The notes under the pieces were generated by a model. It searched no databases and was not told the DNA's origin. It saw only the letters and a program-made list of their open reading frames with translations. The position numbers and the translations under genes were made by a program. DNA of 64,000 nt from an uncultured Thermodesulfobacteriota bacterium (lineage in GTDB: Bacteria; Desulfobacterota; WTBG01; CAIYCZ01; CAIRTM01): NCBI GenBank assembly GCA_964387595.1, contig CAYLYF010000005.1, forward strand, positions 2,220 to 66,219, read 5' to 3'. Below are positions 1,681-21,239 of this stretch, in pieces. The first letter of the stretch is position 1. Every line of letters begins with the position of its first letter.

Positions 1681-1695
1681 TTTTATTCCTTCCTG

Positions 1696-2973: not shown

Positions 2974-3003
2974 TTTATACTTCCTCCTTTGTTTAGTTTC
3001 TAC

Positions 3004-4808: not shown

Positions 4809-6203
4809 TTAATTGACGTCTGCTTTGCTCACGGAAGCTAATTCCTCGTTAATTTTCCGGCTTGATATTATTAACCATATGGCCAGAAGGACATCAGCCG
4901 CGCCCTTCAGTCCAAAAGCCCAGCCGGGTCCAAGAACATCATACAAATAACCGCCAAGCTGAAGAAACAGGAGCATCCCGATAGGCTGCATCGTGTTTAA
5001 GCCCCCCAGAATAGAACCCAGCATTGCCTTGGGTGTAACATCCGTTGCCATGGTATTTGCACCTGCAATTGAGCCGGAGATTCCAAAAGCAACAATCACC
5101 ACAGTGGCCATAACCAGTCCGGAAAACGGTCCGGAAGAGACAGAAATGATCAACATACCCGTCCCGCCCAGAAAAAGAGTTAAAATAATTGTTTTTAATC
5201 TACCCCATTTGTCAAGCAGTATACCAATAATCGGAAACGCTAAAAAAGTAAAAACACTCATTATGATCATGGGTATAGACCCTTTAAGCGTGGCAGTCTC
5301 AGAGGTTAACCCCAGTTTCGCGCCATCCTGCACAGCCCAGGCAATGATAAATGTTGCCATTATCGTGATGTCCGCGCGGCTGATAAAGGAGCACAGATAA
5401 CTTGACTTTAAAGTCGGGCTTTTCATAACCACCTGCATCACTTCTTTAAAACTTTTCTGGTCTTCTTTTTTAGTCTCTGGCATACGGTCTTTTAAAAAGA
5501 GCCAGGTTGAAAGCAGACCAAAAGCTGCCATGATCGCTGCAACAATAAAAAGTCCTGAAACCCCGCTTTTGCGTCCGATCGGTGCGACCGCTGCAAAAAT
5601 AATAATACTGGCCAGCCCCATCATCATACCGTTTAAGGCCATGGCCTTACCACGGTCTTTTTTAAAGGTATAATCAGCACACATGGTAATAAACTGCGGA
5701 TAGACCAGGATCATCCCCACACCTACTAAAAGTCTTAGGATATAAGCTACAAAAAGACCCGGTGAAAAAGCAATAAACTCTGCCGCTCTGGACGGAGCAA
5801 AGCTCAAGTAAGCACAAAAAGTTGAAGAAAATCCTTCTGAGATGTTCAGCCATTCGGCAATGGCAACAGACTGACCGAAAGCATAATAGGAAAAAATAAG
5901 AGAGAAAAATCCGATAACCGCCAGTATCTTACGGCCGACCTTATCAGAGAGTACCCCCACCATGGCCACAAACGCCAGGGTTGCGATCTGGCTCATATTC
6001 TGCAAAAAACCGTTTATTGAACCAAAAAAGTCTGGAGCAACTTTAATAATATCCTGAAGAAATGCCGGCTGAATAATCGCAGGCATAACCATCAGCATTC
6101 CCATGATCAGGGTATTTAAGTAAAGAAAGAAAAAATTAGCTTTGGTCAGATCCGGTGCCACTTCAATTCCGGCAAACTTAGATACCTTCTGTTCTTCGCT
6201 CAT
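4809..6203 (-). CDS. MFS transporter
   Basis: 464 aa, about 12 hydrophobic segments; MFS motif A in both halves (GVLSDKVGRK, GILLDKWGRL). Confidence 0.9.
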   Translation of the reverse strand: MSEEQKVSKFAGIEVAPDLTKANFFFLYLNTLIMGMLMVMPAIIQPAFLQDIIKVAPDFFGSINGFLQNMSQIATLAFVAMVGVLSDKVGRKILAVIGFFSLIFSYYAFGQSVAIAEWLNISEGFSSTFCAYLSFAPSRAAEFIAFSPGLFVAYILRLLVGVGMILVYPQFITMCADYTFKKDRGKAMALNGMMMGLASIIIFAAVAPIGRKSGVSGLFIVAAIMAAFGLLSTWLFLKDRMPETKKEDQKSFKEVMQVVMKSPTLKSSYLCSFISRADITIMATFIIAWAVQDGAKLGLTSETATLKGSIPMIIMSVFTFLAFPIIGILLDKWGRLKTIILTLFLGGTGMLIISVSSGPFSGLVMATVVIVAFGISGSIAGANTMATDVTPKAMLGSILGGLNTMQPIGMLLFLQLGGYLYDVLGPGWAFGLKGAADVLLAIWLIISSRKINEELASVSKADVN

Positions 6204-6272
6204 ATCCTCTCCTCTTGTTCATTAAATAATGGTGTCTTCTATTTACTCCTAAACTAACAATAAAGCCGGGCC

Positions 6273-7622
6273 TTAATTTGTACTCGTGTTATTCGGAAAA
6301 CCGGATCGTTTACAGCCCTTAAAGATCTCCTGCAAAGGATCAGTTTTCATTCTTTTAAGTTTCTGGAACACATCAGGACGATCTTTAGAAACGATCGGCA
6401 TAATTTCAGCCATGGCAGCAGCAACAATTTTAGGAGTTTCATAGGGATCAAGAATACTACGCAGTGTCTTTGTAATTTTACTAAGCAGATAATCAATATC
6501 ATCTACTGTGAGGCAATAAGGCATAACTGCATTACGGATCATGTCACGATGGTCAAGTTTATCGATAATCTCCTTGCGCCACCAGTCAAGATAGACAAAC
6601 ACGCCCTCGCGAGAAATATTTCCTTCAGTTAACGCATATTTTACAGCGTTAGCAGCTTTCCAGCCGCTGATGATCGCTCCGGTCATTTCAGCTTCTTGAC
6701 ACCATACTGCATCAGATACCAGAAGGACCTGGTCTTTATATGGATCAATAATATGAGAATACATATTGCCTTCAATACACAAGGGGCGGATTGTTTCAGC
6801 ATTTTTAAACCAGGGTGCGAAATAGCCCTGCTGGGTAAAACGCTCAAAAGCCCCTTTCACATCTGCGCCGGGATGAGTACAGCTGATAAACGGAAAATAA
6901 GTCTCACCGTCAGCCCGGGGAGTCATCCAGATGCGCATAGGGGTCTTTTCACCCAGAAAAATCTGGAACAGCGCATATTTTTCAGAGGGCTCCACCCCCT
7001 GCATCTCAAAACCATAACTGGTACTGGTCCCGTAATAAATACGATCTTTGTTTTTCCCCAGAGTTTTTGCCAGACGGGAAGCTCTGCCGTCAGCACCGAT
7101 CACAAAGGTTCCTTTAAATTTTGTCCCTTCACGGGTATAAACAGTAACCTGGCCGTTTTGGGTCTGTGTGCCGGTTACATTATGTCCAGGAAAAACATCG
7201 ACACCATATTTTATGCATTCTTTCATCAGACTTTTAAGCAGAGCCCCTTTATCATAGGTCGCGCTGATCCGGCCTTCATCACCCATAGCCTCGTTTTTTT
7301 CATAATCTCCCAGCTGTATTTTGTTCCCTTTATAAGAATATATAGACCAGGAATAAAAATTCTGATGTTTCCCTTCATAGGGAATGGTAAATCCATACGC
7401 CGGAAAGCAGAGCCGCTGGTTCCGTGAATTAATTGAAACGCGGTCTCCCAGATAACAGCCGGTCAGGGTAACGATCATCATGCTGCAGGCACGGTTAATA
7501 TCGGTAATATTTTTTTTCCTTTCAATCAGAGCAACTTTCAGTCCCTGTTCGCCGGCCGTTTTTGCCGCCATTAAACCTGCGGGACCTGCCCCGACAATAA
7601 TTACATCATATACATTTGCCAT
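6273..7622 (-). CDS. NAD(P)/FAD-dependent oxidoreductase, geranylgeranyl reductase/FixC-like (paralog 1)
   Basis: 449 aa. DVIIVGAGPAG Rossmann motif, VIGADGRAS, LVSDA motif. Confidence 0.85.
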   Translation of the reverse strand: MANVYDVIIVGAGPAGLMAAKTAGEQGLKVALIERKKNITDINRACSMMIVTLTGCYLGDRVSINSRNQRLCFPAYGFTIPYEGKHQNFYSWSIYSYKGNKIQLGDYEKNEAMGDEGRISATYDKGALLKSLMKECIKYGVDVFPGHNVTGTQTQNGQVTVYTREGTKFKGTFVIGADGRASRLAKTLGKNKDRIYYGTSTSYGFEMQGVEPSEKYALFQIFLGEKTPMRIWMTPRADGETYFPFISCTHPGADVKGAFERFTQQGYFAPWFKNAETIRPLCIEGNMYSHIIDPYKDQVLLVSDAVWCQEAEMTGAIISGWKAANAVKYALTEGNISREGVFVYLDWWRKEIIDKLDHRDMIRNAVMPYCLTVDDIDYLLSKITKTLRSILDPYETPKIVAAAMAEIMPIVSKDRPDVFQKLKRMKTDPLQEIFKGCKRSGFPNNTSTN

Positions 7623-8066
7623 GTTTTCTCCTCATCTGTGTATCTGTATCTTTGAAAAAATATACTAGTTTATGTTATTCAGGTTCATCTTTTTTACTGC
7701 CGGTTCATAACAGAAATTAATGAAAATGTCCACCAGCCCCGCCTGATTTTCACCAGTCTCCTTAAACGGTTTGCTTACGCGACCAGCACTGACAGATCCT
7801 ATCTCATTCACCTATAAAAGCATATATACTAAAATTCATGACTTAAAGCTAATATTACGAAGGTGGTTAAATTATTTCTAATCATAAAGGTTAATCTAAT
7901 ATACTGATTACTCCAATATTTACAGGATAGATCCGAACAGAGATAATCTTTGCAGTTTTAAACGGACAGTTTATAAGTAATTAATTATAAGTCAAACTTT
8001 TAAAAGTCAGAGCGCATTCACAGTAGCTTGATAATTGCGAAGGATAAAGTCCGGCTGTTCAACCCA

Positions 8067-8237
8067 TCAGATTTCCTGAGGAGCCTTCATCGGACAAACT
8101 TTAACACAGGTTCTGCACTCCAGACATAAAGCTGAATTAATTAAGGCAAAATCTTCATATAAAACGATAGTAGCACGGGGACAAAGGTCCACACATCCTC
8201 CGCAGCCAACACATTTCTGTCTGTCAATCCTGATCAT
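8067..8237 (-). CDS. 2x[4Fe-4S] ferredoxin, 56 aa (below the ORF-track cutoff)
   Basis: Hand translation: MIRIDRQKCVGCGGCVDLCPRATIVLYEDFALINSALCLECRTCVKVCPMKAPQEI*. Two CxxCxxCxxxCP motifs and a GGAG RBS upstream. Confidence 0.9.
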   Translation of the reverse strand: MIRIDRQKCVGCGGCVDLCPRATIVLYEDFALINSALCLECRTCVKVCPMKAPQEI

Positions 8238-8386
8238 ATTGCTAACACTCCTTTAATCTTGTTTTTTTTAACAGCAGCTTAAATCACTTTTATTGAAAAG
8301 GTTGCCCCTGTTTTAACTTTTATCCTGACCTCAGATGCTTCGGCAATAACCTCCCTAGCGGAACACACCTTTAAAGAGGTTAATGA

Positions 8387-10186
8387 TTATTTCCGGGTCT
8401 GATTGTCTGTATCAAAATTTACAAAATTCATCACATGCTTTGCCAGCAATTTTCCAACTCTTGGGTCATCATTTGGCGGTCGATAGTATGCCCAGGTCCC
8501 GGTATACTGGTCCTGTACCGGACTGTTTTTATCGGGGTTGCCCACATAAGGATCATAACCCAGATGCCCGTATTCGCAGACATCAAAAGCCAGATACGGA
8601 TCCATATCGCTCATAGATGAATTTATATTTGTCTGTCTCGGCGGCGGATAAACTCCTCCGTCTTCACAGCCGCCCATTTCAAAACAGCATTCTTCTTCAC
8701 CGCACTGCGTATCCACCCAAATCCCCCAGTAATCCGCAAAAGGATAGCCATCTCCAGCATATGAAACTGAATCCCCTGTGTCCGCATACAACCAGTTCTG
8801 GGTACCGATTTCTTTAGCAATCTGGTTATGCTGTTCAACCAGATTTAAAACTGAATCAGTTATGATCTGAGGAAATCCGATAACGATATGCTTCACACCA
8901 CGGTCTTTAAAATATTCAAGCGCATCCCAGTAGAGATATCCCCATTCATCACCCGGCAGCACATAACCCGTGGTTTCGTATAGCCATGCATGACCAATGT
9001 TTTCGCCGCGCATTTCCCGAGATCTCTCGGTTTTACCATTTTCAGGATTTAGCTCCTTAATTCCCATAAAGGCACCGACTATATTTTCAGGATCCATATC
9101 CGGATGCCGTTCCAACAGTATACTCTTAATGTTTTCATTAAGAACAATCGTGTCATTTATTTTAGGATCGAATGCCTGGTTGTAATCGTGTACAGCATGA
9201 TTTAAAAGGAGAACCGCCGTCTCATTATCAGAAACCGCATCTGACCAGGAATCTTCAATTCCATCGGCCTGGAGTTCTGCCAGTTCAGTATCGTTTGATA
9301 TGGGGTTCTGGTCTGCTGCATAGGTAACAGATACATCATTTTCAGGAGCGCCTTTGCTTCTGGTCCAGTTTTTATCAGCTGGAAAAGATCGTTCCATCAA
9401 TTTTGTATAATCATTCACCCAGATAAGAGGAGTCGCAGGATCCGGTGCCGGTATTACAAACTCGTAATCATTGGGATAATAAAGCAGATGCGGAAATGCA
9501 TAATGCGAAACATCCTCGCCTGCCATCCAGGCAGCCCAGTCAACTTCAAAGCTGAAATCTTCTGAAGCGTCCTGAAGATCCAGTTCATCTTTCATATCCT
9601 GAAGCTGTTGTGCTGTAATATCGTCAAAAGGATCGATCCCGCCGAGTTTTTCATATTCATATGCATATTTAAGAACTTCTTTTTCAGCATTACCACTGCT
9701 CAGAATACCGCCCCATAGATTTTTATTCGGTAGATAAAGCATATTAACAGGATGGTTAGGGTCATAGGAAAACATCTGGGTTGAGGCATCCCAGAGATGC
9801 TGCGGCTTATAGGTTGTAAAACCGCCGTGAACCACAAATATCACACCGATTTTATTTGGATCAGCAACAACCGGGCTTGCTGCTTCAGCCTGTTGGGCCT
9901 CCCAGGCATTCATGGCTGTTTTGGTCATCTGTACCACGTCAAAAGTCTTGGCAAAGCGGACTCCTCCCACGGTCAGATCAATCATGATTATCCGGGAAAC
10001 CCCTTTATTCAGGAGTCTTTCCGCCGGGCCTAAAACATCATAGCGTTCGGAATCACAGTCAGTCCATGGACCGTCATCTTCTTTTTCACCACAGTAGTTA
10101 ATGGAATCTTTTGTACAGGAGGATAAAAACATTCCTGTAAAGAACAGGATAAGTAAAACCAATAAAGTGTTTTTGTTAATCTTCAT
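8387..10186 (-). CDS. Lipoprotein with ferrochelatase/class II chelatase-like motifs in unusual order
   Basis: Signal peptide with lipobox LSSC. HemH/CbiX-like segments IGVIFVVHGG, KLGGIDPFDDITAQQL, AVLLLNHAV, DALEYFKDRGVKHIVIGFPQIITD. Start set at the second Met (MKINK); the ORF track starts at 10201. Confidence 0.6.
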   Translation of the reverse strand: MKINKNTLLVLLILFFTGMFLSSCTKDSINYCGEKEDDGPWTDCDSERYDVLGPAERLLNKGVSRIIMIDLTVGGVRFAKTFDVVQMTKTAMNAWEAQQAEAASPVVADPNKIGVIFVVHGGFTTYKPQHLWDASTQMFSYDPNHPVNMLYLPNKNLWGGILSSGNAEKEVLKYAYEYEKLGGIDPFDDITAQQLQDMKDELDLQDASEDFSFEVDWAAWMAGEDVSHYAFPHLLYYPNDYEFVIPAPDPATPLIWVNDYTKLMERSFPADKNWTRSKGAPENDVSVTYAADQNPISNDTELAELQADGIEDSWSDAVSDNETAVLLLNHAVHDYNQAFDPKINDTIVLNENIKSILLERHPDMDPENIVGAFMGIKELNPENGKTERSREMRGENIGHAWLYETTGYVLPGDEWGYLYWDALEYFKDRGVKHIVIGFPQIITDSVLNLVEQHNQIAKEIGTQNWLYADTGDSVSYAGDGYPFADYWGIWVDTQCGEEECCFEMGGCEDGGVYPPPRQTNINSSMSDMDPYLAFDVCEYGHLGYDPYVGNPDKNSPVQDQYTGTWAYYRPPNDDPRVGKLLAKHVMNFVNFDTDNQTRK

Positions 10187-10248
10187 AACATTACCCTGCA
10201 TTTTTAGATTAATTAATTATTGGCTTATACTATTTTTTTTAAAACAGC

Positions 10249-11562
10249 TCAGCCCTTAACGATGTCTTCTGATGATGATTTCCAGTGTTTTTCAATAACA
10301 GCCGCAATTTTGGGTTTCTCTTTTCTGATCTGGTCAATATGGCTCATGATGGCCTTTTCCATCACATAGCCAGCCGTATTTTCGCTGACGTATCCGGCAT
10401 ATTCTTCATTGTTGGTCAGGCTGAAAATATAATCGAGTTCCTCATCCTGGAGCTGTCCGAGGCCGAACGCCTGCAATGCCTTTTCAATTTCACCGGGCCA
10501 GCAGTATTCAAAGCTTTCCCGCCAGAAATTAGTGTAGTCATCATATCCTTTTCCGGTCCCCAGAACTTTAAGCGCAGCTTGGGCTGCCAAATAACCATAC
10601 ATCAGTGCAGACTGACAATAGGTTTCAATAAACGCCGCAGAATCCCCCACCACAACAATATTTCCCTCAACCGGGTTCATAATACAGGTATAAAAATTAA
10701 GCATGCATGCCGCCTTGTGAACAATCTTGGCATTATGAAACCATTCCTTAAACGGTCCTTCGGTTAAAAACCAGTCCAGTCCCATTTTAGCCGGCATACC
10801 GCAGGGAGTTCCGCAAAAAACATCCAGGATAGGTTTGTCCCCTTCCTTTGCGTCAGCCAGATACTTGGGTACCATATAGATCTGGCCTTTGCCCCAGGGT
10901 GTATGTCCCTTGCCCACACAGGTTATCCAAGAATCCCAGTTTGGATAATCCACCTCATCCAGAAAATAGGAGGCCACCCTGTACGACCCAAAATATTTTC
11001 GGGTTTTGAACAGCTCAAGACCGGTGACAATCTGTGAGTTACAACCGTCCGCCGCGAAACAAACCCTGCACCAAACTTCTTTCTGCGTTCGCGTATGACT
11101 ATCACGAATCGTGACCTTTACCTTCCCGTCAATATTTTCCGCTCGGATACCCGCTGTTTCGGTCAGGATATCAACGCCATTGGCCAGAGACTCTTCCAGA
11201 AGATTTCGCAGGATGATCTCTTTAGTATACGGCAGAGCTACCCCGTTTTCACGGTTGACTATGGTCAGCTTGTTGCCGCCGGTTGACATCCTGGAGCTTT
11301 TAACCAGCTTCACATGAGGATGCCCATATTTTACGGTGATACCGGTTTTTTCAAAGTGCAGATCATTGTCAACAAAACGAACGGTTTCCCCATGGGTATT
11401 GGGTTCGTTAATCAGCATGGTACAGCAGGAACGGTAAACCTTTGATATTTCTTTTTTGATGTCGATTAGAAGAACATCCTGACTGGCAGCGGAGAGCTCT
11501 TTAGCGATCATCAATCCCGCAGGCCCTGCGCCTACCACGATAAAATCATATATTTTATTCAT
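10249..11562 (-). CDS. NAD(P)/FAD-dependent oxidoreductase, GGR/FixC-like (paralog 2)
   Basis: 437 aa. DFIVVGAGPAG, FAADGCNS, VVGDSA. Start overlaps the stop of the upstream ferredoxin. Confidence 0.85.
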   Translation of the reverse strand: MNKIYDFIVVGAGPAGLMIAKELSAASQDVLLIDIKKEISKVYRSCCTMLINEPNTHGETVRFVDNDLHFEKTGITVKYGHPHVKLVKSSRMSTGGNKLTIVNRENGVALPYTKEIILRNLLEESLANGVDILTETAGIRAENIDGKVKVTIRDSHTRTQKEVWCRVCFAADGCNSQIVTGLELFKTRKYFGSYRVASYFLDEVDYPNWDSWITCVGKGHTPWGKGQIYMVPKYLADAKEGDKPILDVFCGTPCGMPAKMGLDWFLTEGPFKEWFHNAKIVHKAACMLNFYTCIMNPVEGNIVVVGDSAAFIETYCQSALMYGYLAAQAALKVLGTGKGYDDYTNFWRESFEYCWPGEIEKALQAFGLGQLQDEELDYIFSLTNNEEYAGYVSENTAGYVMEKAIMSHIDQIRKEKPKIAAVIEKHWKSSSEDIVKG

Positions 11563-11792
11563 GAACGCTCCCCTTTTTCGTACGTATCGCTAGTGAAATT
11601 AAGCAACAATATTTCCGGAAAGCGACAGTCGCAATAAATCGCATCCACACCGCAGGCAGCCCTGCAGGTACCACACTCTATACAGGATACTTGATCAATA
11701 AAAGACTTGTCCTCGACGAACCGTATGGCCAGTCTCGGGCAGAGATTAACACAGGCTCCGCAGCCTACGCATATTTCACGATCTACTTTCAT
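11559..11792 (-). CDS. 2x[4Fe-4S] ferredoxin
   Basis: 77 aa. CVGCGACVNLCP and CIECGTCRAACG. Confidence 0.92.
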   Translation of the reverse strand: MKVDREICVGCGACVNLCPRLAIRFVEDKSFIDQVSCIECGTCRAACGVDAIYCDCRFPEILLLNFTSDTYEKGERS

Positions 11793-11832
11793 AACCTATC
11801 CACATCCATTTATAGTTAATATCGCTTACCAA

Positions 11833-12597
11833 TCATGTACGGCAATGACGGCAAATATCATAAAAATCTTTTGACAATCCGGCTTCTTTGGAAAAATAAG
11901 CCAGCTGATTTTCAGGTGCAAAAGTTTCTCCGCATTCTTTGCAGGTTTTGAGCTTGAGATTAACTTTCCAGTTCTGAATGATCCTTGCAGGCCCCTGTAC
12001 TTTGGTACCGTCATGGGCAACAGCTGTTTCACCTTCCTCAATATCAATAAGCTTTATGGCACCGGTCGGACAGATTTCCGCACAGGTACCGCAGCCGATA
12101 CAGTCTTCTGCTTTTTCATAGAATGGAGATACTGCCAGCTTTTCATAACCGCGGTTAGCAAAACCAATGGCGCTCATACCGACCAGTTCGCTGCAGGCCC
12201 GGACACATCTGCCGCAGGCAATACAGAGTTCGTTCCTTGGCGCAAAGCGTTTCACCGGTTTAACCCCAAGGTCACGTGCCAGATCCTGAATTACTTTTGC
12301 CTCAGGCGCTTCTGACAACAGCAGTTCAATAATGCAGGCCCGAATACCCCTGATCTTTTCTGTGGCTGTAAGAACGGTCAGGCCCTCTTCAGCCTTATAT
12401 ACGCAAGAACTGACAACATGTGACACACCGCCTCTGTTTATTTCTACCACACACAGCCTGCATCCACCCGTTGGGGTGAGTGAATCATGATGACATAAAG
12501 TTGGGATCCAGACACCGATCTTTTGAGCTGCCTGTAAGAGAGTGGCTCCTTCCGGAACCTGTACCTGAACTTCATCAATTTTGAGTGTTACCATCAT
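11833..12597 (-). CDS. NuoG/HydA N-terminal-like (HoxU/BamI-type) Fe-S subunit without a catalytic domain
   Basis: 254 aa. [2Fe-2S] motif IPTLCHH..GGCRLCVVE..SSC, two [4Fe-4S] motifs (CIACGRCVRAC, CIGCGTCAEICP), extra C-terminal CKEC..CRHC. No H-cluster or Mo-bisPGD domain. Confidence 0.88.
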   Translation of the reverse strand: MMVTLKIDEVQVQVPEGATLLQAAQKIGVWIPTLCHHDSLTPTGGCRLCVVEINRGGVSHVVSSCVYKAEEGLTVLTATEKIRGIRACIIELLLSEAPEAKVIQDLARDLGVKPVKRFAPRNELCIACGRCVRACSELVGMSAIGFANRGYEKLAVSPFYEKAEDCIGCGTCAEICPTGAIKLIDIEEGETAVAHDGTKVQGPARIIQNWKVNLKLKTCKECGETFAPENQLAYFSKEAGLSKDFYDICRHCRT

Positions 12598-12671
12598 AAC
12601 TCCTTGGAATATAAGGAAAAGACTTAAATACTCTAAACCTTTTCCTGTTTATAACATAAATATCCAACCTG

Positions 12672-14543
12672 TTAGGTCAGTACAGCGCCCACAGGACAAA
12701 TTTCTGAGCAGGCGCCGCACTTGATGCATTTTTTTAAATTAATTTTATGCGCCTTTTTCTTTTCACCGCTTACAGCTGCACTGGGGCAGGCCTTTAGACA
12801 GGCACCGCATCCAATACATGCTTTTTTATCAATTGAATATTTAACAAGTTCACGGCATACACCTGCCGGACATTTCTTATCCTTAATATGCGCCAGGTAC
12901 TCATCCTTAAAATATTTCAAGGTAGACAGTACCGGGTTAGGTGCTGTCCGGCCAAGTCCGCACAAAGCTGAGTCCTTAATCGTACCCGCCAGTTTTTCAA
13001 GCAATGCAAGGTCTTTTATCGTTCCACGGCCTTCACATATGTCCTCAAGAATTTCTCTCATTCTTCTAACGCCCACACGGCAGGGAGTACACTTACCGCA
13101 GGATTCGTCTTCCAGAAACCTGAGGAAATAAAGAGCCACATCGACCATACATGTTTTTTCATCCATGACGATCAGACCGCCGGATCCCATAATAGAACCG
13201 GTCTCAGCCAGTTTATCATAATCCACAGGCATATCGATCAGACTTTCAGGGATACAGCCGCCGGACGGGCCGCCGGTCTGAACAGCTTTGAATGCCTTAT
13301 CTCCAGGAATACCGCCGCCGATATCAAAAATAATTTCCCGCAGGCTTATTCCCATAGGCACTTCGACCAGTCCTACATTATTAACTTTTCCAACCAGAGA
13401 AAACACCTTGGTTCCCTTACTGGTTTCTGTTCCCACAGCAGAAAACAATTTTGCACCGTTCTTAACCAGAGCTGGAACATTGGCCAGAGTTTCAACATTA
13501 TTTATTATGGTGGGACATCCATACAAGCCCTGTACAGCTGGGTATGGCGGTCTTTGCTGCGGTTCACCGCATTCACCTTCAACAGACTGAATCAAAGCTG
13601 TTTCTTCACCACATACAAAGGCACCGGCACCCCGACTGATACGGATATCAAAACTAAAATCAGACTTTAAGACTGAATCACCGATAATACCGTTTTCACG
13701 GGCCTTTTCAATGGCTATCTCCAATCGCTGAATCGCCAGTGGATATTCATCTCTCACATAGATCACGCCCTGGGAAGCACCGACAGCATAGCCGGCAATG
13801 AGCATGCCCTCTATTACTGCATGCGGATCGCCTTCAAGGATACTTCTGTCCATATAGGCACCCGGATCACCTTCATCCGCATTACATATAATATATTTTT
13901 GTTTACCGCGAGCCTTTCGACAGGTCTTCCATTTAAGTCCGGTTGAGAAACCGCCACCGCCGCGTCCGCGCAAGCCGGCTTTCTTCACTTCATTAATGAC
14001 CTGCATAGACGTTTTTTCACTCAGTGCAGTAGCCAGACCTTCATAACCGCCAAGGGCGACATATTCATCAATATTTTCCGGATCAATAATACCACAGTTG
14101 CGCAGCGCAACCCGATGCTGTTTGCAGTAAAAAGCATGGCTTTTGCTGTCAGGCACATTTTCACAGCAGGGCTCGTCAGCAGATGGATCTAATGATGTTT
14201 GTAGCAGCGCTCCTTCCGGAATCGTATCCAGTTTAATCGCAGCCAGTATTGCCTGAACTTCATCATGAGTTACCTTACCATAGGTCAGCCTGACTTTACC
14301 GGGTATCCAGACATCAACCAAAGGTTCCTGATGACACATACCGTTACATCCGGCTTTTTGAACTTGAACATCCATTTTGCGCTTTTTAATCCCTTTAATA
14401 AAAGCGTCCAAAACGGTCTGTGCACCTGCAGCAAGGCCGCAGGAGGCAAAACCAACCGAAATCTTGATTCGTTCGGGCAACAGTGAAGCCTGCCCGGATT
14501 TTTCCAGTTTCTCTAAATGCGTAAAAGGTTTACCCTTCATCAT
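12672..14543 (-). CDS. NuoF/HydB/HoxF-family NADH/FMN-binding subunit (long form)
   Basis: 623 aa. GLRGRGGGGF, NADEGDPGAYMDRS, GAGAFVCGEETAL, GGPSGGC, ESCGKCTPCR; N-terminal Trx-like [2Fe-2S] domain and C-terminal 2x[4Fe-4S]. Confidence 0.95.
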   Translation of the reverse strand: MMKGKPFTHLEKLEKSGQASLLPERIKISVGFASCGLAAGAQTVLDAFIKGIKKRKMDVQVQKAGCNGMCHQEPLVDVWIPGKVRLTYGKVTHDEVQAILAAIKLDTIPEGALLQTSLDPSADEPCCENVPDSKSHAFYCKQHRVALRNCGIIDPENIDEYVALGGYEGLATALSEKTSMQVINEVKKAGLRGRGGGGFSTGLKWKTCRKARGKQKYIICNADEGDPGAYMDRSILEGDPHAVIEGMLIAGYAVGASQGVIYVRDEYPLAIQRLEIAIEKARENGIIGDSVLKSDFSFDIRISRGAGAFVCGEETALIQSVEGECGEPQQRPPYPAVQGLYGCPTIINNVETLANVPALVKNGAKLFSAVGTETSKGTKVFSLVGKVNNVGLVEVPMGISLREIIFDIGGGIPGDKAFKAVQTGGPSGGCIPESLIDMPVDYDKLAETGSIMGSGGLIVMDEKTCMVDVALYFLRFLEDESCGKCTPCRVGVRRMREILEDICEGRGTIKDLALLEKLAGTIKDSALCGLGRTAPNPVLSTLKYFKDEYLAHIKDKKCPAGVCRELVKYSIDKKACIGCGACLKACPSAAVSGEKKKAHKINLKKCIKCGACSEICPVGAVLT

Positions 14544-15016
14544 TTATTGTCTTTTCTATATTGTTGAAGTAAATTTCCGGTTTTAACCTGAGTCATGCCG
14601 CCGTGAATATCGTCATTGATTTTAACCACCGGAGCCATACTGCAGCATCCGAGACAGCGGACTTTTTTTAAGGTAAACTCACCATCAGCACTGGTTCCTT
14701 CACCGGCTTCAATTCCAAGCTCACGGGAAACACTCTGCGTCAGGTTATCCGCATTTTTAACATGACAGGCGGTACCCGTACATACACTGACAGTGTTTTT
14801 CCCCTGGGGATCCAGACTGAATGAATGATAAAAAGAAGCAACAGCAAATATTTTACTGAGGGGAATCTCTAATTCTTCAGATGCATGCGACAAGACCTCC
14901 TTCGGCAGATAACCGAATTCTGACTGAATGTCCTGCAGCAGCGTGATCAGTGTTCCCTTTTCCTCTTTATGTTTTTGAACTATTTGCTTAACTTTATTTT
15001 TTCGTGGCAATTTCAT
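14540..15016 (-). CDS. NuoE/HydC-family [2Fe-2S] subunit
   Basis: LITLLQDIQSEFGYLP, VASFYHSF, VCTGTACHVK, VRCLGCCSMAPVV. Start set at MKLPRK (15016), overlapping the end of the PorB-like gene. Confidence 0.93.
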   Translation of the reverse strand: MKLPRKNKVKQIVQKHKEEKGTLITLLQDIQSEFGYLPKEVLSHASEELEIPLSKIFAVASFYHSFSLDPQGKNTVSVCTGTACHVKNADNLTQSVSRELGIEAGEGTSADGEFTLKKVRCLGCCSMAPVVKINDDIHGGMTQVKTGNLLQQYRKDNK

Positions 15017-15935
15017 GGATTGTTCCCGTTTTTTGAATGTCCTCATAAAATTCATCAACAGCCGTCTGAAATGCAGGCATCAGACTTGCTGGAAAGGTGA
15101 AAAAGCGCTTTTGTAAAGCCAGATATTCCTGAACCGGTTTACGGTTTTTCGACTGTATCGTGAGCCGGATAACACCGTCAATTACTTCGTACAGCGGAAA
15201 ATATCCGGTTAAGACCGCCCTGCGGCCGATATCAAGTGTTTTATTCGAAGCAAATATCCATCCGGTGGGGCACGGGGTCAAAACCAGGATAAAAGCATTA
15301 CCAGGACTGTCAAGGCCCCGACGGACCTTTTCGATCAGATCAAACGGATGGCTTGGACAGGCTGTTGCCATATAAGAAAAATCTTCTTTCGCAGCAACAG
15401 CGGGAATATTTTTTTGCCGGACAGCATCCCTGACATCCTTTTCATTAACAGAATGTTTTCTTTCATTCTGTATAAAAGGCCGGGGAATTGCCCTGCGGAT
15501 AAGTGTATCCATAGCAGGTTCATTATCAAAACAGACAATCAAAGCATTTTTATTCTTCAAAAAACGCTGTAAAACAACATAATCACTGTCAAGCACCTTT
15601 CGGTCAATCCCGATCACAGGCTTTTTAACCGCCACATGAGACGACTTAGACTGACGGGCTGACTTTGCATTAAAACTGTCTATTACAAAGACAAGTTTTT
15701 CAAGAGTGTCTGCTGTATTCACACGGTCATGTGCAAAAGTGTTTGCGCTCAGAGCCGAATTGGAAATTCCGGTATGACCGTTTATACCGCCCAGCGCCGG
15801 ATCTGCGCTATCAGTTACTTTGGATACAAGCCGTGCGGCCAGAGACTTAACACACCCTTTACATGAGCGCCTTCCGCTTAGAAAGCGTTCCTGACGGGGT
15901 AAAATTTTCGGTACAAATACAGAGAACCTATCCAT
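14994..15935 (-). CDS. Degenerate 2-oxoacid:ferredoxin oxidoreductase beta-subunit-like protein (PorB/PadI-like)
   Basis: Retains SGRRSCKGC, CFDNE, YMATACPSHPFDL, TPCPTGW and GYFPLYE, but lacks the GDG TPP-binding motif. GGAGG RBS before MDRFSVF. Confidence 0.75.
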   Translation of the reverse strand: MDRFSVFVPKILPRQERFLSGRRSCKGCVKSLAARLVSKVTDSADPALGGINGHTGISNSALSANTFAHDRVNTADTLEKLVFVIDSFNAKSARQSKSSHVAVKKPVIGIDRKVLDSDYVVLQRFLKNKNALIVCFDNEPAMDTLIRRAIPRPFIQNERKHSVNEKDVRDAVRQKNIPAVAAKEDFSYMATACPSHPFDLIEKVRRGLDSPGNAFILVLTPCPTGWIFASNKTLDIGRRAVLTGYFPLYEVIDGVIRLTIQSKNRKPVQEYLALQKRFFTFPASLMPAFQTAVDEFYEDIQKTGTIHEIATKK

Positions 15936-15958
15936 TAATAAGTTGCCTCCCAAACATA

Positions 15959-16249
15959 TTATTTAACCAGCCACGGAGCGCGCTCTACGGCAATTTCCAG
16001 TGATATACAACCGGTGACACACTGCTGTATGCAAAGACCGCAGCCTTTACAATACGTTAAATCCGCTGCATAGAATCCGTCTTCATTTTGAAAAATGGCA
16101 CCGTCAGGACAGGACAGATAGCATATTCCACAGCGCACACATTTTTGCGTATCCCATACAGGCCTCTCAAAACGCCAGTCATCATTTATCTTAAAATCAT
16201 CAGTAATTGGATTAACGGACCCAAATTTTATACAATCTTGTTTTTTCAT
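15959..16249 (-). CDS. 2-oxoacid:ferredoxin oxidoreductase delta-subunit-like ferredoxin (PorD/PadF-like)
   Basis: 96 aa. DWRFERPVWDTQKCVRCGICYLSCPDG and CKGCGLCIQQC. Confidence 0.88.
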   Translation of the reverse strand: MKKQDCIKFGSVNPITDDFKINDDWRFERPVWDTQKCVRCGICYLSCPDGAIFQNEDGFYAADLTYCKGCGLCIQQCVTGCISLEIAVERAPWLVK

Positions 16250-16335: not shown

Positions 16336-17661
16336 TCAATAACAGGGATAGCCTATCCGGCTGGCCTTACTCATCATTAAAGCTGCTCTTTCCGGGGTAA
16401 ACATCTCAATTTTTTTAGCAATTATCGGACGCTCTTTTCTGATGGTTTCCAAATGTGGTTTTAAGCCCTGGCTGATCCCCCGGTACATCAAAAAGGGATT
16501 CATCGTCCAAGGAAGCTTGGTGTCAACGATCTGGTGGAGATAGTTATGCTCCTCCTCATTAAACAGCCTGTTAAATACTGGATATAAAACAAATTCTTTA
16601 TAATCATGGGTTTCCACCCAGTTTTTCTGCCACCAGTCAATATAATCTTTCACCCCTTCACGGTTCACCTGGCCTGTATGCAGGGCTTTACACACAGCAT
16701 TTGCCGCCTTATGTCCCGATAGCAGCGCACCGGTATTTTCCGCTTCAGCAAACCAGCAGCTGTCTCCCACAAATATTATATTATCCTTAAAAGGCTCTTT
16801 GGCAGGGCTCCAGTTGCTTATAACTGCACAGCGCTCATGGGTAATCTCCACATTCTTAAACCAGTGCTTATAGTTACTTTGCTGAGTCAGATATTCAAGC
16901 CGTTCCTTACCTTGAATATAAAGCCAGTATTCGTCCGGACTGTAAACACTTGGAAGCATACTGAACATGATCGTACCCAGCTGACCCGGACCATAACAAA
17001 GTCCAAGAGCGATCATTTCGGAGCGGTCAAATTCAACCCCAGTGATATAGTAGCTGTTGGCACGGCCGGTATTAATAAAAATCCGGTCACGATTCAGACC
17101 CGAGATCCGGGCAAGTCTTGAATTAGCACCATCGGCAGCTATACAGAAGCTGCCCGTAAAAGAATCTCCTTCCGCTGTTTTAACACGGACACCCTCCGGG
17201 GTGTTTCTGGCAGAAATCACATTCCGGCCCAGATAAAAATCTACAGTTGCCTGAATTCCCTCTTCATAAATACCGCCAAGGAGTGCGCCTTTATCAAAGA
17301 CAACCGCGGGCACACCCGCACCGGAAGCATTTTTTTCATAATCACCGATCTCAATACGGTCTTTTCCATTTGGCGCAATAAAATGGAGGGCGTAAAATTC
17401 ACGATAATCGCCGGCATAGTTTACTGAGAAATTATTCACCGGAAATACCCAGCGTTTTTGCTCGCGTGAAAAGTACATGTTTTCATTATAGAATGAATCC
17501 ATATTCAGCAGAAACATCTGCGCACAGGACCGCTGAATCTTTGCAGGATCTGTTTTGCGTTCGATCAATGCTACTTTCAGTCCGTTCTGAGCCGCAGTTT
17601 TTGCCGCTTCAAGTCCAGACGTTCCACCGCCAACAACGATTAAATCATATTTTTCAGACAT
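16336..17661 (-). CDS. NAD(P)/FAD-dependent oxidoreductase, GGR/FixC-like (paralog 3)
   Basis: 441 aa. DLIVVGGGTSG, IAADGANS, FVGDSC. Clearly alignable to 6273-7622. Confidence 0.85.
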   Translation of the reverse strand: MSEKYDLIVVGGGTSGLEAAKTAAQNGLKVALIERKTDPAKIQRSCAQMFLLNMDSFYNENMYFSREQKRWVFPVNNFSVNYAGDYREFYALHFIAPNGKDRIEIGDYEKNASGAGVPAVVFDKGALLGGIYEEGIQATVDFYLGRNVISARNTPEGVRVKTAEGDSFTGSFCIAADGANSRLARISGLNRDRIFINTGRANSYYITGVEFDRSEMIALGLCYGPGQLGTIMFSMLPSVYSPDEYWLYIQGKERLEYLTQQSNYKHWFKNVEITHERCAVISNWSPAKEPFKDNIIFVGDSCWFAEAENTGALLSGHKAANAVCKALHTGQVNREGVKDYIDWWQKNWVETHDYKEFVLYPVFNRLFNEEEHNYLHQIVDTKLPWTMNPFLMYRGISQGLKPHLETIRKERPIIAKKIEMFTPERAALMMSKASRIGYPCY

Positions 17662-17922: not shown

Positions 17923-18303
17923 CTATTTTAGTGACGCAATATTTTCATAAAATGAATCTATTACCGGTACCATAAGTGCCGATATCTCTTTAAGAAATGA
18001 TTTTCCAAAGGAAGTCAGCGAATAATACTTTCTGTTTGCACCCTGAGCAGACGGTTCTTTGATACTTTTAAGAATTCCTTCTGCCTCCAACGTCCGCAGT
18101 TTTTTGTAAAGGTTATTGCGGTCAATGTCAAAAGCACCTTCTGTAATAGTATAGATCTCATCCTTTATTTCATAAGCATATTTTGGGCTTCTGCTGATAA
18201 GAGACAGTACTGTAAATTGCAGAAATCCCCGTTTAATGTCAAATTGAAGTTGTTCAAGATGCTTACTCAGTATTTGCTGCTCGTTGATGTTTAATTTCAC
18301 CAT
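17923..18303 (-). CDS. PadR-family transcriptional regulator
   Basis: 126 aa. YAYEIKDEI, NLYKKLRTLEAEG, NRKYYSLTSFG. Confidence 0.9.
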   Translation of the reverse strand: MVKLNINEQQILSKHLEQLQFDIKRGFLQFTVLSLISRSPKYAYEIKDEIYTITEGAFDIDRNNLYKKLRTLEAEGILKSIKEPSAQGANRKYYSLTSFGKSFLKEISALMVPVIDSFYENIASLK

Positions 18304-18632
18304 TTTTTCAGCCTTGAGTAAAGGTTAGAGATATAGTTTGATAAGATACATTTACACACACTAGTTCTAACAAAATTAAAAGTCAAGCATGAAATTATTT
18401 TTTTGAAGCTTAAGATTAGAATAAATATAAATTGAGGACCGTCAAGGTCCGGAATCCATATCGCCACATCACATTATTTAAATGTTTAATAACAAATGCT
18501 GTTTTGAACAATAACCGTTAAATAACAAATCATGAAAAGACCTATACATAAATATCTCTTGAATTAGTTTTTTAAATCAGGTATATCTTCTTGCAAAATA
18601 GATAAATTTTTTTAATAAAAAAATAAGAATCA

Positions 18633-19016
18633 ATGAAAACCAAAAAAAATAAATTATTAGAAAAAGAAATAATCAAACAGCATCATGATCAGATCGTATT
18701 TGACCTGAAACGGGCCTTCCTGCAATCTATAACCCTGATATTGATCAATCAGGGATCAAAATACACATATGAAATAAAGGCCGATATCTTAAAACTCTCA
18801 AAAGGCGGTTTTGACATTGACCGTAATAATCTCTATAAAAAGCTGAGATCGCTTGAAAAAGACGGTGTCCTAGACAGTCATCTTGAACCTTCCGCTAAAG
18901 GAGCACAGCGTAAATACTATACCATAACACCCCAGGGACAAGAATTGCTGACCAGAAGCATCGCGACTTTATCTCCCCTGATCTCTTCATTAAAGGAACA
19001 TCTTGTGAACAGGTAA
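18633..19016 (+). CDS. PadR-family transcriptional regulator (divergent paralog)
   Basis: 127 aa. YTYEIKADI, FDIDRNNLYKKLRSLEKDG, RKYYTITPQG. Confidence 0.9.
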   Translation: MKTKKNKLLEKEIIKQHHDQIVFDLKRAFLQSITLILINQGSKYTYEIKADILKLSKGGFDIDRNNLYKKLRSLEKDGVLDSHLEPSAKGAQRKYYTITPQGQELLTRSIATLSPLISSLKEHLVNR

Positions 19017-19089
19017 AGACTCAATAGTTAACCTTAAGGTCACCCTGCAATCTATAATAATTTCGGAATCTCCTGATTATAACCAGCAA

Positions 19090-19290
19090 AATCAGGATCG
19101 ATAATTATTTTGGTACCGCAATGATCAGCGTTATAAAGCGGATTAGAGGGGCCCGCTTAAAAAAGTAATTCCCTGTCAAAATTAAACAACTCTTTCTTTA
19201 CTGCTTCATCAATAACAAATTCAGTAGCCCCTTTAACAGAAATACTGGCATGGTCGTCTGGACGGTACTAAAAATACCCGCCTTAAATTG
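19090..19290 (-). pseudogene. Remnant of a pyridoxamine 5'-phosphate oxidase-like (split-barrel) gene
   Basis: Hand translation *YRPDDHASISVKGATEFVIDEAVKKELFNFDRELLF*AGPSNPLY resembles the C-terminal half of PNPOx-like/general stress proteins. In-frame stops; no start. Confidence 0.4.
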
Positions 19291-19330
19291 TTGAAAACTT
19301 CACAAACTTTCTTCGATTTACCCCTTTTTT

Positions 19331-19876
19331 CTATCGTGTCCAGGAAACGCGAAATATCCCTTCCGCTGGATTTGTGTATCTAATCCGATTGGGCTCAATG
19401 ACGATGATTTTGTGATTAAATTTAGGGTTGAGGTTTTTTGACTGAATTTTTCTACCTCCGATAACAATGTTCATTGCTTTAAATGCTTTTTCAAACAATT
19501 CGGAGTCCTCTTTTCTGCTGTAAATTACCGCTTTCCCCCATGCCTGCAGTCCCTTGTAACCCCAGAAATCATCAGCGAGATTATAGGGTTCTGCAATCGA
19601 AAAAGCGATCTTTTTGTTTTTTTTAAGGTTGCTAAACTTACTGCCCCCCTCGGAAAGAACATAAAAGGTTAATCCGCGCGACATGTATCCAACAGGGGTG
19701 GAACGCGGGGCATCATTTTTTGACGTGCACAGGTGCAGGACCTCATTTCTTTTAATAAACTTTATAAGATCTTTTTCAAAGGAGCTTGCCGATCGGTAAT
19801 TTTTTAATTTCAACCCCGATTTCTTAAAAACCTCTGTTACATTTGTTGGTATAGAATCCTGTTTAATTTTTGACAT
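19331..19876 (-). CDS. Pyridoxamine 5'-phosphate oxidase family flavin-binding protein
   Basis: 181 aa. LHLCTSKNDAPRSTPV, KFSNLKKNKKIAFSI, GLQAWGKA. Confidence 0.85.
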   Translation of the reverse strand: MSKIKQDSIPTNVTEVFKKSGLKLKNYRSASSFEKDLIKFIKRNEVLHLCTSKNDAPRSTPVGYMSRGLTFYVLSEGGSKFSNLKKNKKIAFSIAEPYNLADDFWGYKGLQAWGKAVIYSRKEDSELFEKAFKAMNIVIGGRKIQSKNLNPKFNHKIIVIEPNRIRYTNPAEGIFRVSWTR

Positions 19877-19955
19877 ATCACTTCACCTTTCTTGAGATTT
19901 ATGTTAACCGGTTATCTGCTTCGATTAAGTAATTTTGAAAAAAAATAGTAATTAT

Positions 19956-19974
19956 CCACGGCTAAAAGCCGTTG
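19956..19974. repeat. IS200/IS605-end-like hairpin
   Basis: CCACGGCTAAAAGCCGTTG (stem ACGGCT/AGCCGT). Resembles the CCACGGCTAAAGCCGTGG-type subterminal hairpins of IS200/IS605 elements. No transposase nearby. Confidence 0.35.
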
Positions 19975-20044
19975 TTTTATCTTGTAATAAAATTCATCAA
20001 TTAAAAAACTCACAAGCCGTACGGCTCTCATGCTGTAATATAAA

Positions 20045-20495
20045 ATTTACCTGTATCCGTAGCCGAATGCCCCCCAGATTAGTCAGGGGCATTCGGTACA
20101 GACGCAAAGAGCCTTCACCTGCAGCAAACATATCCGCCCTTTTTTCAAGATCCTTAATAGAACGCCTAAGTTCATGATATATGATCTTTAGACATTAAAG
20201 AATATCTTCTCACTGGAAAGAATTTCTGCCCTGGACTCTACAATCGCAGCCCGGTAATTATGGCCGCGGTGATCACCGTCACAGATCTTAAAAGAAGCCG
20301 CCCGATTTTTTTCAATACAGCGGTTCATGCGGCCGCCGCGTTTTGTTCCGGTATAAAGATATAAAGATATTAATCATCTGTTGCAAATGATGTTTCAACT
20401 GCATAGGGCTTCCCCTTATCTACGACAATCAAGGTACCCAAGATCTGATCATTCATAAGCTTCTTGATTTCCGGTTCAGTAATTGACTGTCTCAT
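20045..20495 (-). pseudogene. PNPOx/NimA-like flavin-nucleotide-binding protein pseudogene
   Basis: MRQSITEPEIKKLMNDQILGTLIVVDKGKPYAVETSFATDD* then YLYTGTKRGGRMNRCIEKNRAASFKIC. TAA at 20370-20372, 8-bp tandem duplication ATAAAGAT (20353-20368), a further frameshift and stop near 20200. Confidence 0.75.
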
Positions 20496-20689
20496 ATCTT
20501 CCAATTCTCCAAAATATTCATAAAATAATTTAACCCGTCACACTTTTAAAACTGACTTCTTAACAAATTAATATTGCAAATCCTTCCATGGTACTATCTT
20601 TTCACATGTATTCTCTTACACTTGTTAAGAATATGTAACATGTTTTTTTTACCGTGTCAACACATGTGCGCTGTTAAACAGCTCGCATA

Positions 20690-21077: not shown

Positions 21078-21239
21078 ATTTTCAAATCGTCCTTTTATAA
21101 CCATCAATTGACTTATCCTCAATAATTCCATAAAATCCTGTAAGTAGCGTGAGAATGTCTTAGGCATGTAATCTCCGAACTAAAGTACATATTTTCCACG
21201 GCACGAACCAAAATCTTTATTTAGTTAAGGAATTCAAGG

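Follow-up and report, generated by a model that had tools for sequence, protein, structure and literature searches.

Flavin-based electron bifurcation is carried out by four enzyme families. The latest of them to be recognized is Bfu (HydABC-like), in which about a third of the clades (17–18) have no assigned third substrate (PMC9304861). Members of Bfu Type 2 have a short BfuA subunit without the A3 and A5 clusters or a catalytic domain, the third reaction being performed by extra subunits; the published Type 2 members are the Wor-, Bam-, Por-, Codh- and Mbh-Bfu enzymes (PMC9304861). Here we consider a 64,000-nucleotide stretch of contig CAYLYF010000005.1 from an uncultured Thermodesulfobacteriota bacterium (further referred to as the window), in which a BfuCBA module is found in one gene run with a degenerate beta subunit of 2-oxoacid:ferredoxin oxidoreductase (POR), denoted PorB*, small ferredoxins, and flavoproteins resembling geranylgeranyl reductases (GGRs). 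Judging by sequence, the cluster may encode a new Type 2 Bfu enzyme, in which NADH (with reduced ferredoxin) would drive flavoprotein reduction of C=C bonds in an imported hydrophobic compound. We give this reading as a whole about an even chance of being correct. The sequence-only reading of this DNA had proposed a new system, in which a module without a catalytic subunit has the adjacent FAD enzyme as the catalytic partner. Modules without a catalytic subunit are already published as Bfu Type 2 (WorA, BamI), and what seems to be new here, as far as the sequences tell, is the partner (GGR-like flavoproteins) and the PorB* adaptor rather than the Bfu core.

Seven genes are located between positions 10249 and 16249 of the window, all on the minus strand, and their order and coordinates agree with those read initially from the sequence, as confirmed by the listing of open reading frames (ORFs) and by Pfam and NCBIfam scans. 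In the order of reading, they encode a PorD-like delta subunit with two [4Fe-4S] clusters (96 aa, 15959–16249; TIGR02179 PorD_KorD, 74.6 bits with the cut-off of 60); PorB* (14994–15953; NCBIfam PorB, 146 bits with the cut-off of 405); BfuC, a NuoE/HydC-like thioredoxin-like [2Fe-2S] protein (14540–15058; PF01257, E = 3e-48, 163.8 bits, with HoxE and NuoE matches in NCBIfam); BfuB, NuoF/HydB-like (623 aa, 12672–14543; PF01512, E = 8e-49, PF10589, E = 3e-33, and a C-terminal Fer4 pair); BfuA, a NuoG/HydA stub (254 aa, 11833–12597; Fer2_4 and Fer4 only in Pfam); the 2x[4Fe-4S] ferredoxin Fdx77 (11559–11792; Pfam Fer4); and FlavoA, a GGR-fold FAD flavoprotein and the proposed catalytic partner (437 aa, 10249–11562). 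Three junctions are overlapping, PorB*/BfuC, BfuC/BfuB (4 nt) and Fdx77/FlavoA (4 nt), and the remaining gaps equal 5–86 nt. In the gene calls of an identical public contig, PorB* starts at window position 15935, and BfuC, at 15016. The gene content assigned to the span 10249–16249 was thus confirmed, whereas its limits are not those of the unit: the co-directional run continues at both ends, with FlavoB upstream and a lipoprotein, Fdx56, FlavoC, a major facilitator superfamily (MFS) transporter and a GlcDEF-like trio downstream. A promoter-like sequence TTGACA-17 nt-TATAAA, spotted by eye, is located upstream of FlavoB at 17814–17786. In the scan for promoter and terminator consensus sequences, weak sites were numerous and did not delimit the operon clearly. 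Genes for hydrogenase, formate dehydrogenase (FDH), aldehyde oxidoreductase (AOR)/BamB and Hdr were not found by Pfam scans of the larger ORFs of the window, and on the basis of these scans the presence of BamB–F, a hydrogenase or FDH elsewhere in it was rejected.

All strings previously quoted as features of a bifurcating-type NuoF are present in the BfuB translation, namely ADEGDPGAYM, GGPSG and HIKDKKCPAGVC, as well as two CxxCxxCxxxC motifs. When searched against PDB with phmmer, BfuB aligned over its full length (residues 27–621) with solved bifurcating HydB, NfnB, StnB and WorB chains, the matches being 9bov_B (766 bits), 7q4v_B (HydB), 9n5u_B (NfnB), 8oh5_B, 7t2r_B (NiFe-HydB), 8a6t_B and 9mqx_B (WorB). 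The aligned parts comprise the N-terminal thioredoxin-like domain, the B1 motif, the AHIKDKKCPAGVC His/Cys “B2/Zn” site and both C-terminal [4Fe-4S] motifs. The B1 [4Fe-4S] motif ESCGKCTPCR matches the equivalent motif of 9bov_B and 7q4v_B; the C-terminal Fer4 motifs (B3, B4) are at residues 569–621; and in the N-terminal [2Fe-2S] site (B5) the SCG...GCxGxC pattern is conserved, the fourth B5 ligand not being located. The N-terminal [2Fe-2S], the His/Cys B2 site and the C-terminal 2x[4Fe-4S] are the criteria of Schut et al. (2022) that distinguish bifurcating BfuB from the NuoF/HoxF type (PMC9304861). By these sequence features, BfuB of the window belongs to the bifurcating HydB/BfuB type, and homology predicts that it binds NADH at FMN.

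Among solved chains, BfuA is matched best by WorA (9mqx_A, 247 aa), with E = 5e-46. BfuA has sites for one [2Fe-2S] and two [4Fe-4S] clusters, formed by 4+4+4 cysteines, and a C-terminal CxxC...CxxC motif, whereas the HxxxCxxC motif, i.e. the His-containing third cluster motif, is absent. All 12 cluster cysteines are invariant, and the C-terminal four-cysteine motif is retained in 10 of 11 sequences; its counterpart in WorA is a zinc finger (PMC12318220). The count of cofactor ligands equals that of WorA. As had been read initially, BfuA contains no catalytic domain, be it H-cluster, NiFe or Mo-bisPGD. Given that such a BfuA defines the published Type 2, this is no anomaly. PorD, PorB*, Fdx77 and the flavoproteins lie in one run with BfuCBA, as is characteristic of a Type 2 operon. 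Judged by the sequence-level tests on BfuB, BfuC and BfuA, the NuoEFG module of the window is a typical Type 2 member.

To place the cluster among its relatives, more than 90 related metagenome loci (denoted by L-numbers) were collected via look-ups of FlavoA and PorB* homologues and one metagenome scan with a PorB* profile, and were scored by tblastn with the window proteins. In 30 of them the flanks were sufficient, that is, at least 1.5 kb upstream and at least 6 kb downstream of PorB (with the downstream flank of 6–10 kb). PorA was absent from 19 loci (approximately 16 non-redundant), and all 19 contained a FlavoA-type flavoprotein (45–95% identity); BfuCBA was present in 17, between PorB* and Fdx77. 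The 11 loci with PorA had no FlavoA-type flavoprotein, and BfuCBA was found in three (Por-Bfu). A hydrogenase, FDH or BamB was seen beside the cluster in none of the 19 PorA-less loci. Hence the association of NuoEF and the NuoG stub with this flavoprotein clade, for which a synteny search had been suggested, is strongly conserved, and the lack of synteny that would have refuted the initial reading is not observed. The gene order is held across lineages in which the identity falls to 35% for PorB* and to about 60% for BfuB. The cluster was found in many sediment and groundwater metagenome contigs, and NCBI names of several homologues point to Thermodesulfobacteriota.

The arrangement is not due to chance, as it recurs in approximately 16 non-redundant loci from other metagenomes. 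It is highly improbable that the Bfu genes and the flavoproteins are functionally unlinked neighbors, given the order conserved over such divergence and the overlapping reading frames, even though the link is drawn from synteny and two loci have no Bfu genes.

PorB* had no Pfam match, TPP_enzyme_C (TPP, thiamine pyrophosphate) included, whereas the canonical PorB of the window (25843–26676) matches with E = 4e-36. The closest solved chain is the beta subunit of oxalate oxidoreductase, 5c4i_C (E = 3e-32). In the alignment, IDR stands in place of GDG, NTGxQ has disappeared, and DNE alone is kept. All 26 family members retain cysteines C31, C34, C141 and C228. Three of them, C31, C34 and C228, occupy canonical PorB positions, whereas the segment that should carry the canonical third cluster cysteine is variable, and the fourth invariant residue is C141; this pattern makes plausible a [4Fe-4S] cluster in which one ligand has been substituted. 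On the neighbor-joining (NJ) tree of PorB sequences, all PorA-less copies form one clade, and its sister clade comprises canonical PorBs mixed with those of Por-Bfu. In the related loci that were examined, PorD directly precedes PorB*. Most likely, PorB* is a Fe-S adaptor wire joining BfuA to the ferredoxin and flavoprotein. Adaptors of other Type 2 Bfu enzymes, WorS (PMC12318220) and BamF (bioRxiv 10.64898/2026.04.10.717634; PMC9304861), provide a precedent.

A canonical POR, PorDABG, is encoded in the window at 24389–27280 on the plus strand (PorD, 101 aa; PorA, 389 aa; PorB with an intact TPP domain, 277 aa; PorG, 200 aa). Its PorA is the only one in the window, on the strand opposite to the cluster and 7 kb away from it. 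One may ask whether the cluster is a Por-Bfu in disguise, in which the PorD/PorB* pair works with PorA and PorG encoded elsewhere, for instance by this operon, a 2-oxoacid is the third substrate and the flavoproteins are unrelated neighbors. We consider this very unlikely. True Por-Bfu clusters of the type PorD-PorA-PorB-BfuCBA do exist (PMC9304861) and were recovered here in four loci, and the canonical POR is close at hand. At the same time, PorB* has no TPP_enzyme_C match and has lost GDG and NTGxQ; PorA or PorG is found within the scored flanks of 0 of the 19 PorB* loci, against the flavoprotein in all 19; and in no other locus is PorDABG kept close to the cluster. As it also has its own PorB and PorD, PorDABG was rejected as a complement of PorB*. 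With no recognizable TPP domain and no PorA nearby, the system of the window is, by sequence, not a POR. Descent of the module from Por-Bfu is plausible; for the entire module it was not demonstrated, PorB* being a sister to the mixed canonical and Por-Bfu clade.

For the proposed catalytic partner FlavoA, sequence search against PDB gave only Rossmann-level matches, and therefore a search by fold was needed. In the Foldseek search with the AlphaFold2 (AF2) model (pLDDT 93.5), the top seven matches were GGRs with TM-scores of 0.62–0.74, the first being Ta0516 (3oz2; E = 3e-23, TM 0.68/0.74), followed by the Sulfolobus acidocaldarius GGR (3atq) and by 4op*. Hydroxylases of the p-hydroxybenzoate hydroxylase (PHBH) type and flavin halogenases ranked behind the GGRs. 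We then considered GGR motifs as listed in PMC10821996. FlavoA has GxGxxG (GAGPAG at residue 11). In the alignment of 24 flavoprotein sequences, an LxGD-like motif, VVGD, is present, and YxWxFP (of PxxYxWxFP) and RxxFD are absent from all of them. The three paralogues (FlavoA, FlavoB and FlavoC) have R44 and C46 as invariant residues, to which C47 is added in the FlavoA clade, where an unusual vicinal cysteine pair, R-S-C-C, is conserved; the equivalence of the FlavoA cysteine near 47 to the catalytic Cys47 of the S. acidocaldarius GGR is by position number only. The TIGR02032 scores are 69 bits for FlavoA, 65 for FlavoB and 80 for FlavoC, all below the cut-off of 158.8. A contig profile search with the flavoprotein alignment, the patterns of which represent a generic FAD motif, retrieved only distant GGRs (20–30% identity) among the matches listed and yielded no synteny that could be used. 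Given the absent motifs and the scores below the cut-off, prenyl reduction by FlavoA is not established. FlavoA, FlavoB and FlavoC are enzymes of the GGR superfamily that are not assignable as GGRs proper.

Alternatively, the flavoproteins might act oxidatively or on something other than an alkene. They could be dehydrogenases or desaturases, or enzymes that dearomatize or dehalogenate a low-potential substrate, with Bfu coupling the reaction to NAD+ and ferredoxin in either direction. The PHBH-type hydroxylases and halogenases ranking next after GGRs, the missing GGR cavity motif and the conserved R-S-C-C pair agree with such chemistry; a low-potential third reaction would suit Bfu energetics better, and Bam-Bfu is a precedent for Bfu modules in ring reduction. 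However, O2-dependent chemistry is hardly expected in a cluster with oxygen-sensitive Fe-S enzymes and homologues named Thermodesulfobacteriota, C–C desaturation cannot reduce NAD+ or ferredoxin, and there are no CoA ligase or aromatic-pathway genes in the cluster. On balance we regard this explanation as unlikely.

FlavoB, the first gene of the run (441 aa, 16336–17661, minus strand; Pfam Rossmann/FAD), is 25% identical to FlavoA and has orthologues (65–96% identity) in eight loci. The third paralogue, FlavoC (449 aa, 6273–7622, minus strand), has orthologues in L066, L067 and L072 (92–94%) and in L073 (70%), and the 56-aa 2x[4Fe-4S] ferredoxin Fdx56 encoded upstream of it (8067–8237, minus strand; Pfam) is kept with FlavoC in the first three of these. 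In the PorB*-type loci that were checked, FlavoA is immediately preceded by an orthologue of Fdx77 with 69–95% identity (50% in the divergent locus L139). Each flavoprotein is adjoined by a dicluster protein: FlavoB-PorD, Fdx77-FlavoA and Fdx56-FlavoC. In L139 (236–19184), six GGR-superfamily paralogues, a GlcD-like pair and two small ferredoxins surround PorD-PorB-BfuCBA; the six paralogues suggest that there are several substrates of a related kind or that a single polyunsaturated molecule is reduced step by step.

In two loci, L072 (9702–12532) and L073 (9729–12580), the three Bfu genes are cleanly missing, and PorD-PorB* leads directly to Fdx77-FlavoA, with 50–120 nt between PorB* and Fdx77. 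The flanks of L072 are 90–97% identical to the window, but its PorD and PorB* are only 79% and 75% identical, respectively, which suggests cassette exchange between close relatives. Both loci are nested inside Bfu-containing clades on the NJ tree, indicating two secondary losses of the Bfu genes. Hence Bfu is not strictly obligatory in cis. The proposal that the adjacent FAD enzyme is the catalytic partner of the module is partly supported, by the conserved association. More distant relatives of FlavoA (42–43% identity) occur in another conserved cluster with neither Bfu nor PorB* genes (L146 and L149, approximately 900–11200), which has the order ferredoxin, GlcD-like, CCG, GlcD-like, ferredoxin, flavoprotein, 3-beta-hydroxysteroid dehydrogenase (3-beta-HSD)/epimerase, NIR_SIR/Fer4 protein, second flavoprotein, ATC_hydrolase and FMN reductase.

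An alternative explanation is loose coupling, in which BfuCBA with PorD/PorB* would form a self-contained NADH-linked ferredoxin oxidoreductase that only keeps Fdx77 and Fdx56 reduced, and the flavoproteins would be soluble clients rather than subunits. This shuttle model stays alive because of the Bfu-less variants and of one ferredoxin per flavoprotein; it also fits the distant FlavoA relatives clustered with ferredoxins and the use of free ferredoxin by archaeal GGRs (PMC10821996). On the other hand, in the family model NAD(H) and ferredoxin do not suffice and one more redox partner is required (PMC9304861), PorB* is never seen without the flavoprotein, suggesting more than a shared electron pool, and the reading frames overlap at the Fdx77/FlavoA and PorB*/BfuC junctions. 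We consider loose coupling possible and the most serious alternative, and yet distinctly less probable than a dedicated Bfu-flavoprotein enzyme.

In the proposed enzyme, electrons of NADH, probably together with those of reduced ferredoxin in the confurcating mode as in other Bfu enzymes, would exit via BfuA; confurcating input of NADH and reduced ferredoxin has been shown for BamGHI (bioRxiv 10.64898/2026.04.10.717634). They would then pass a three-cluster wire of PorD (2x[4Fe-4S]) and PorB*, reusing the intramolecular wire of pyruvate:ferredoxin oxidoreductase, and proceed to Fdx77, the ferredoxin dedicated to this route, and to the FAD in FlavoA. FlavoB, and FlavoC with its own Fdx56, would probably be served in parallel in the same way. 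A hydrophobic unsaturated compound, sensed by the PadR regulators and imported by the MFS transporter, would then have its C=C bonds reduced by the flavoproteins. Judging by sequence, FlavoA may be either a bound subunit or a soluble client reached via a small ferredoxin.

Several observations weigh against the reductive Bfu-flavoprotein reading. Support for the coupling comes from sequence and synteny, and the loci L072 and L073 demonstrate that the flavoprotein unit can exist without adjacent Bfu. FlavoA has neither the GGR cavity motif PxxYxWxFP nor RxxFD and scores under the TIGR02032 cut-off; the canonical third cluster cysteine is lost in PorB*, so that its cluster is an assumption; and several conserved neighbors are exported proteins that are hard to place in a cytoplasmic redox complex. 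Moreover, ordinary C=C reduction is a high-potential reaction, an ordinary alkene being a high-potential acceptor, so that obligatory spending of reduced ferredoxin would waste energy, except in the case of a true substrate that resists reduction. The third substrates of characterized Bfu enzymes are of mid or low potential.

The remaining genes of the run and of related loci offer hints at the substrate. The gene next to FlavoA (8387–10201, minus strand) encodes a 604-aa lipoprotein of an uncharacterized family with the lipobox LSSC and a ferrochelatase-like core. The search returned 562 homologues, of which the 120 listed have lengths of 504–965 aa and no informative Pfam domain, a few of them having TSP3 or dockerin repeats; a lipoprotein-type signal is present in most aligned members. 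The ferrochelatase domain PF00762 matches two orthologues weakly (13–16 bits with the cut-off of 27). With the AF2 model (pLDDT 81), the top 43 Foldseek matches in PDB are all ferrochelatases (E from 2e-5 to 5e-3, target-normalized TM 0.44–0.63). The C-terminal part is cysteine-rich (…CGEEECCFEMGGCEDGG…). Orthologues of this protein adjoin the cluster in eight loci. The MFS transporter (4809–6203, minus strand; PF07690) is kept downstream of the flavoproteins in four loci and is the probable substrate importer. The GlcDEF-like trio at 31–4536 (minus strand; FAD_binding_4, CCG Fe-S and FAD_binding_4 in Pfam) is linked to the cluster in seven loci, as well as to the distant FlavoA relatives and ferredoxins in L146 and L149; since the cluster of these relatives also has a GlcD/CCG/GlcD trio, the trio may belong to the pathway.

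Upstream of the run there is a divergent pair of PadR-family regulators (17923–18303, minus strand, and 18633–19016, plus strand; PF03551), and PadR genes are found upstream of the cluster in seven loci. Just upstream of the PadR genes the G+C content drops to 0.35–0.38 (positions 18000–24000), compared with 0.44–0.47 in the cluster, and this stretch contains a PIF1-like helicase with a C-terminal WYL domain at 21240–22778. Also upstream of the run, on the minus strand at 19331–19876, there is a gene of a PNPOx-like split-barrel protein (PF01243), homologues of which are encoded directly downstream of FlavoA in three loci. Nothing significant was found for it in PDB and NCBIfam, so that a relationship to HugZ or to F420-biliverdin reductase would be conjectural. 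The Rfam scan over the whole window revealed no riboswitch able to name a ligand.

Related loci further contain genes similar to ferredoxin-dependent bilin reductases (FDBR; three loci), HemF-like genes (six loci), an alpha/beta hydrolase gene, and genes of two exported cysteine-rich paralogues (about 210 and 222 aa) that have no Pfam matches and share the motifs DPYPHKFN, FPCPYK and W.DVC..WC. The last pair is present in L064 (9122–10435) and in eight other loci. None of these FDBR-like, HemF-like, 210/222-aa and hydrolase genes occur in the window.

These data suggest, weakly, an external compound of tetrapyrrole or terpenoid origin that the cell would take up: the fold homology of FlavoA hints at an isoprenoid-like chain, and the neighboring genes hint at a tetrapyrrole or bilin. 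In the tetrapyrrole version, sulfate-reducing Thermodesulfobacteriota would use a Bfu-powered system for anaerobic reductive salvage or breakdown of heme- or chlorophyll-derived porphyrins and bilins. The exported ferrochelatase-fold lipoprotein would handle the metallated pigment, the MFS transporter would import it, and the GGR-fold flavoproteins would reduce vinyl groups, methine bridges or the phytyl chain with electrons supplied from NADH and ferredoxin via BfuABC and PorD/PorB*; FDBR-like and HemF-like proteins would assist in related genomes. We regard this version as speculative and doubtful. To our knowledge, little is known about anaerobic tetrapyrrole turnover. The gene clusters of pre-PcyA have neighbors different from those observed here (PMC10151467), and our literature search on Desulfobacter and bilin or heme found no description of an arrangement of this kind.

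Elsewhere in the window, an 828-aa ORF at 33712–36198 (minus strand) has no Pfam match at E ≤ 1e-4. A ferredoxin-like protein and an HD-domain protein are encoded at 49625–51139, and the region 51376–56596 contains a hybrid-cluster protein gene (Prismane, 547 aa) divergent from NifU-NifS-MOSC-Crp/Fnr genes. A run at 56857–60597 (minus strand) comprises genes of a YceI-like protein, an MMPL/RND transporter and a 350-aa protein without a Pfam match. The YceI-like family binds polyisoprenoids, and this run may represent one more connection with hydrophobic or isoprenoid compounds.

If the proposed reading is true, the cluster is a concrete, widespread candidate for one of the unassigned Bfu clades; our literature search found no paper linking Bfu or NuoF with GGR-like or prenyl reductases. 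It would introduce GGR-fold flavoproteins reducing organic double bonds as a new class of partners, and PorB without a recognizable TPP site, reused with PorD as a Fe-S wire, as a new adaptor. It would also raise the question of why a presumably high-potential reduction is coupled to ferredoxin. Should the tetrapyrrole version be true, no earlier Bfu enzyme would have had a flavoprotein reductase as its partner, and a new oxygen-independent route of tetrapyrrole catabolism would follow. The ferrochelatase-fold, bilin-reductase-like and HemF-like neighbors make the link to anaerobic tetrapyrrole turnover testable.

Among the known systems, Wor-Bfu (WorABCSL from Acetomicrobium mobile, PDB 9MQX, PMC12318220) resembles the module of the window in the BfuBC core and in the BfuA of about 250 aa with one [2Fe-2S], two [4Fe-4S] and a C-terminal four-cysteine site. 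There, as proposed here, the chemistry is performed on extra subunits plugged into BfuA via a Fe-S adaptor. The partners are different: a tungstopterin aldehyde oxidoreductase and the polyferredoxin WorS in Wor-Bfu, and GGR-fold flavoproteins, PorD/PorB* and small ferredoxins in the window. Besides, BfuA of the window terminates with the second CxxC and lacks a helix adaptor at the C-terminus.

Por-Bfu, predicted in Dehalococcoides and syntrophs (PMC9304861), has the same arrangement of PorD and PorB directly upstream of BfuC-BfuB-BfuA and a similarly short BfuA. It keeps PorA and, in part, PorG, and the flavoprotein occurs in 0 of the 11 PorA-containing loci, whereas the family of the window has no PorA or PorG nearby. 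The window-type loci always contain Fdx77 and FlavoA, and their PorB* has no recognizable TPP site and forms a separate clade.

BamGHI of class II benzoyl-CoA reductase (bioRxiv 10.64898/2026.04.10.717634; PMC9304861) has a HydBC-type confurcating input of NADH and reduced ferredoxin, and its short BamI/BfuA feeds a reductase of an organic substrate through the adaptor BamF, both as proposed for the cluster described here. The downstream components of that system are the HdrA-like BamDEF and the W-pterin BamBC, the genes of which are absent from the window and from the related loci.

Archaeal GGRs (Ta0516, 3OZ2; SaGGR, 3ATQ; PMC10821996) are the best structural match of FlavoA, with which they have in common the FAD Rossmann motif, the LxGD-like motif and, by position number, a conserved cysteine near 47. 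The identity is about 16%, PxxYxWxFP and RxxFD are absent from FlavoA, and it scores below the TIGR02032 cut-off. Many archaeal GGRs have an adjacent ferredoxin gene, as FlavoA does (PMC10821996), and the pairing of flavoproteins with dicluster proteins in the window echoes these GGR-ferredoxin pairs. Unlike the archaeal systems, the cluster is bacterial, PadR-regulated and accompanied by an MFS transporter and exported proteins, a context that catabolism or detoxification suits better than membrane-lipid synthesis.

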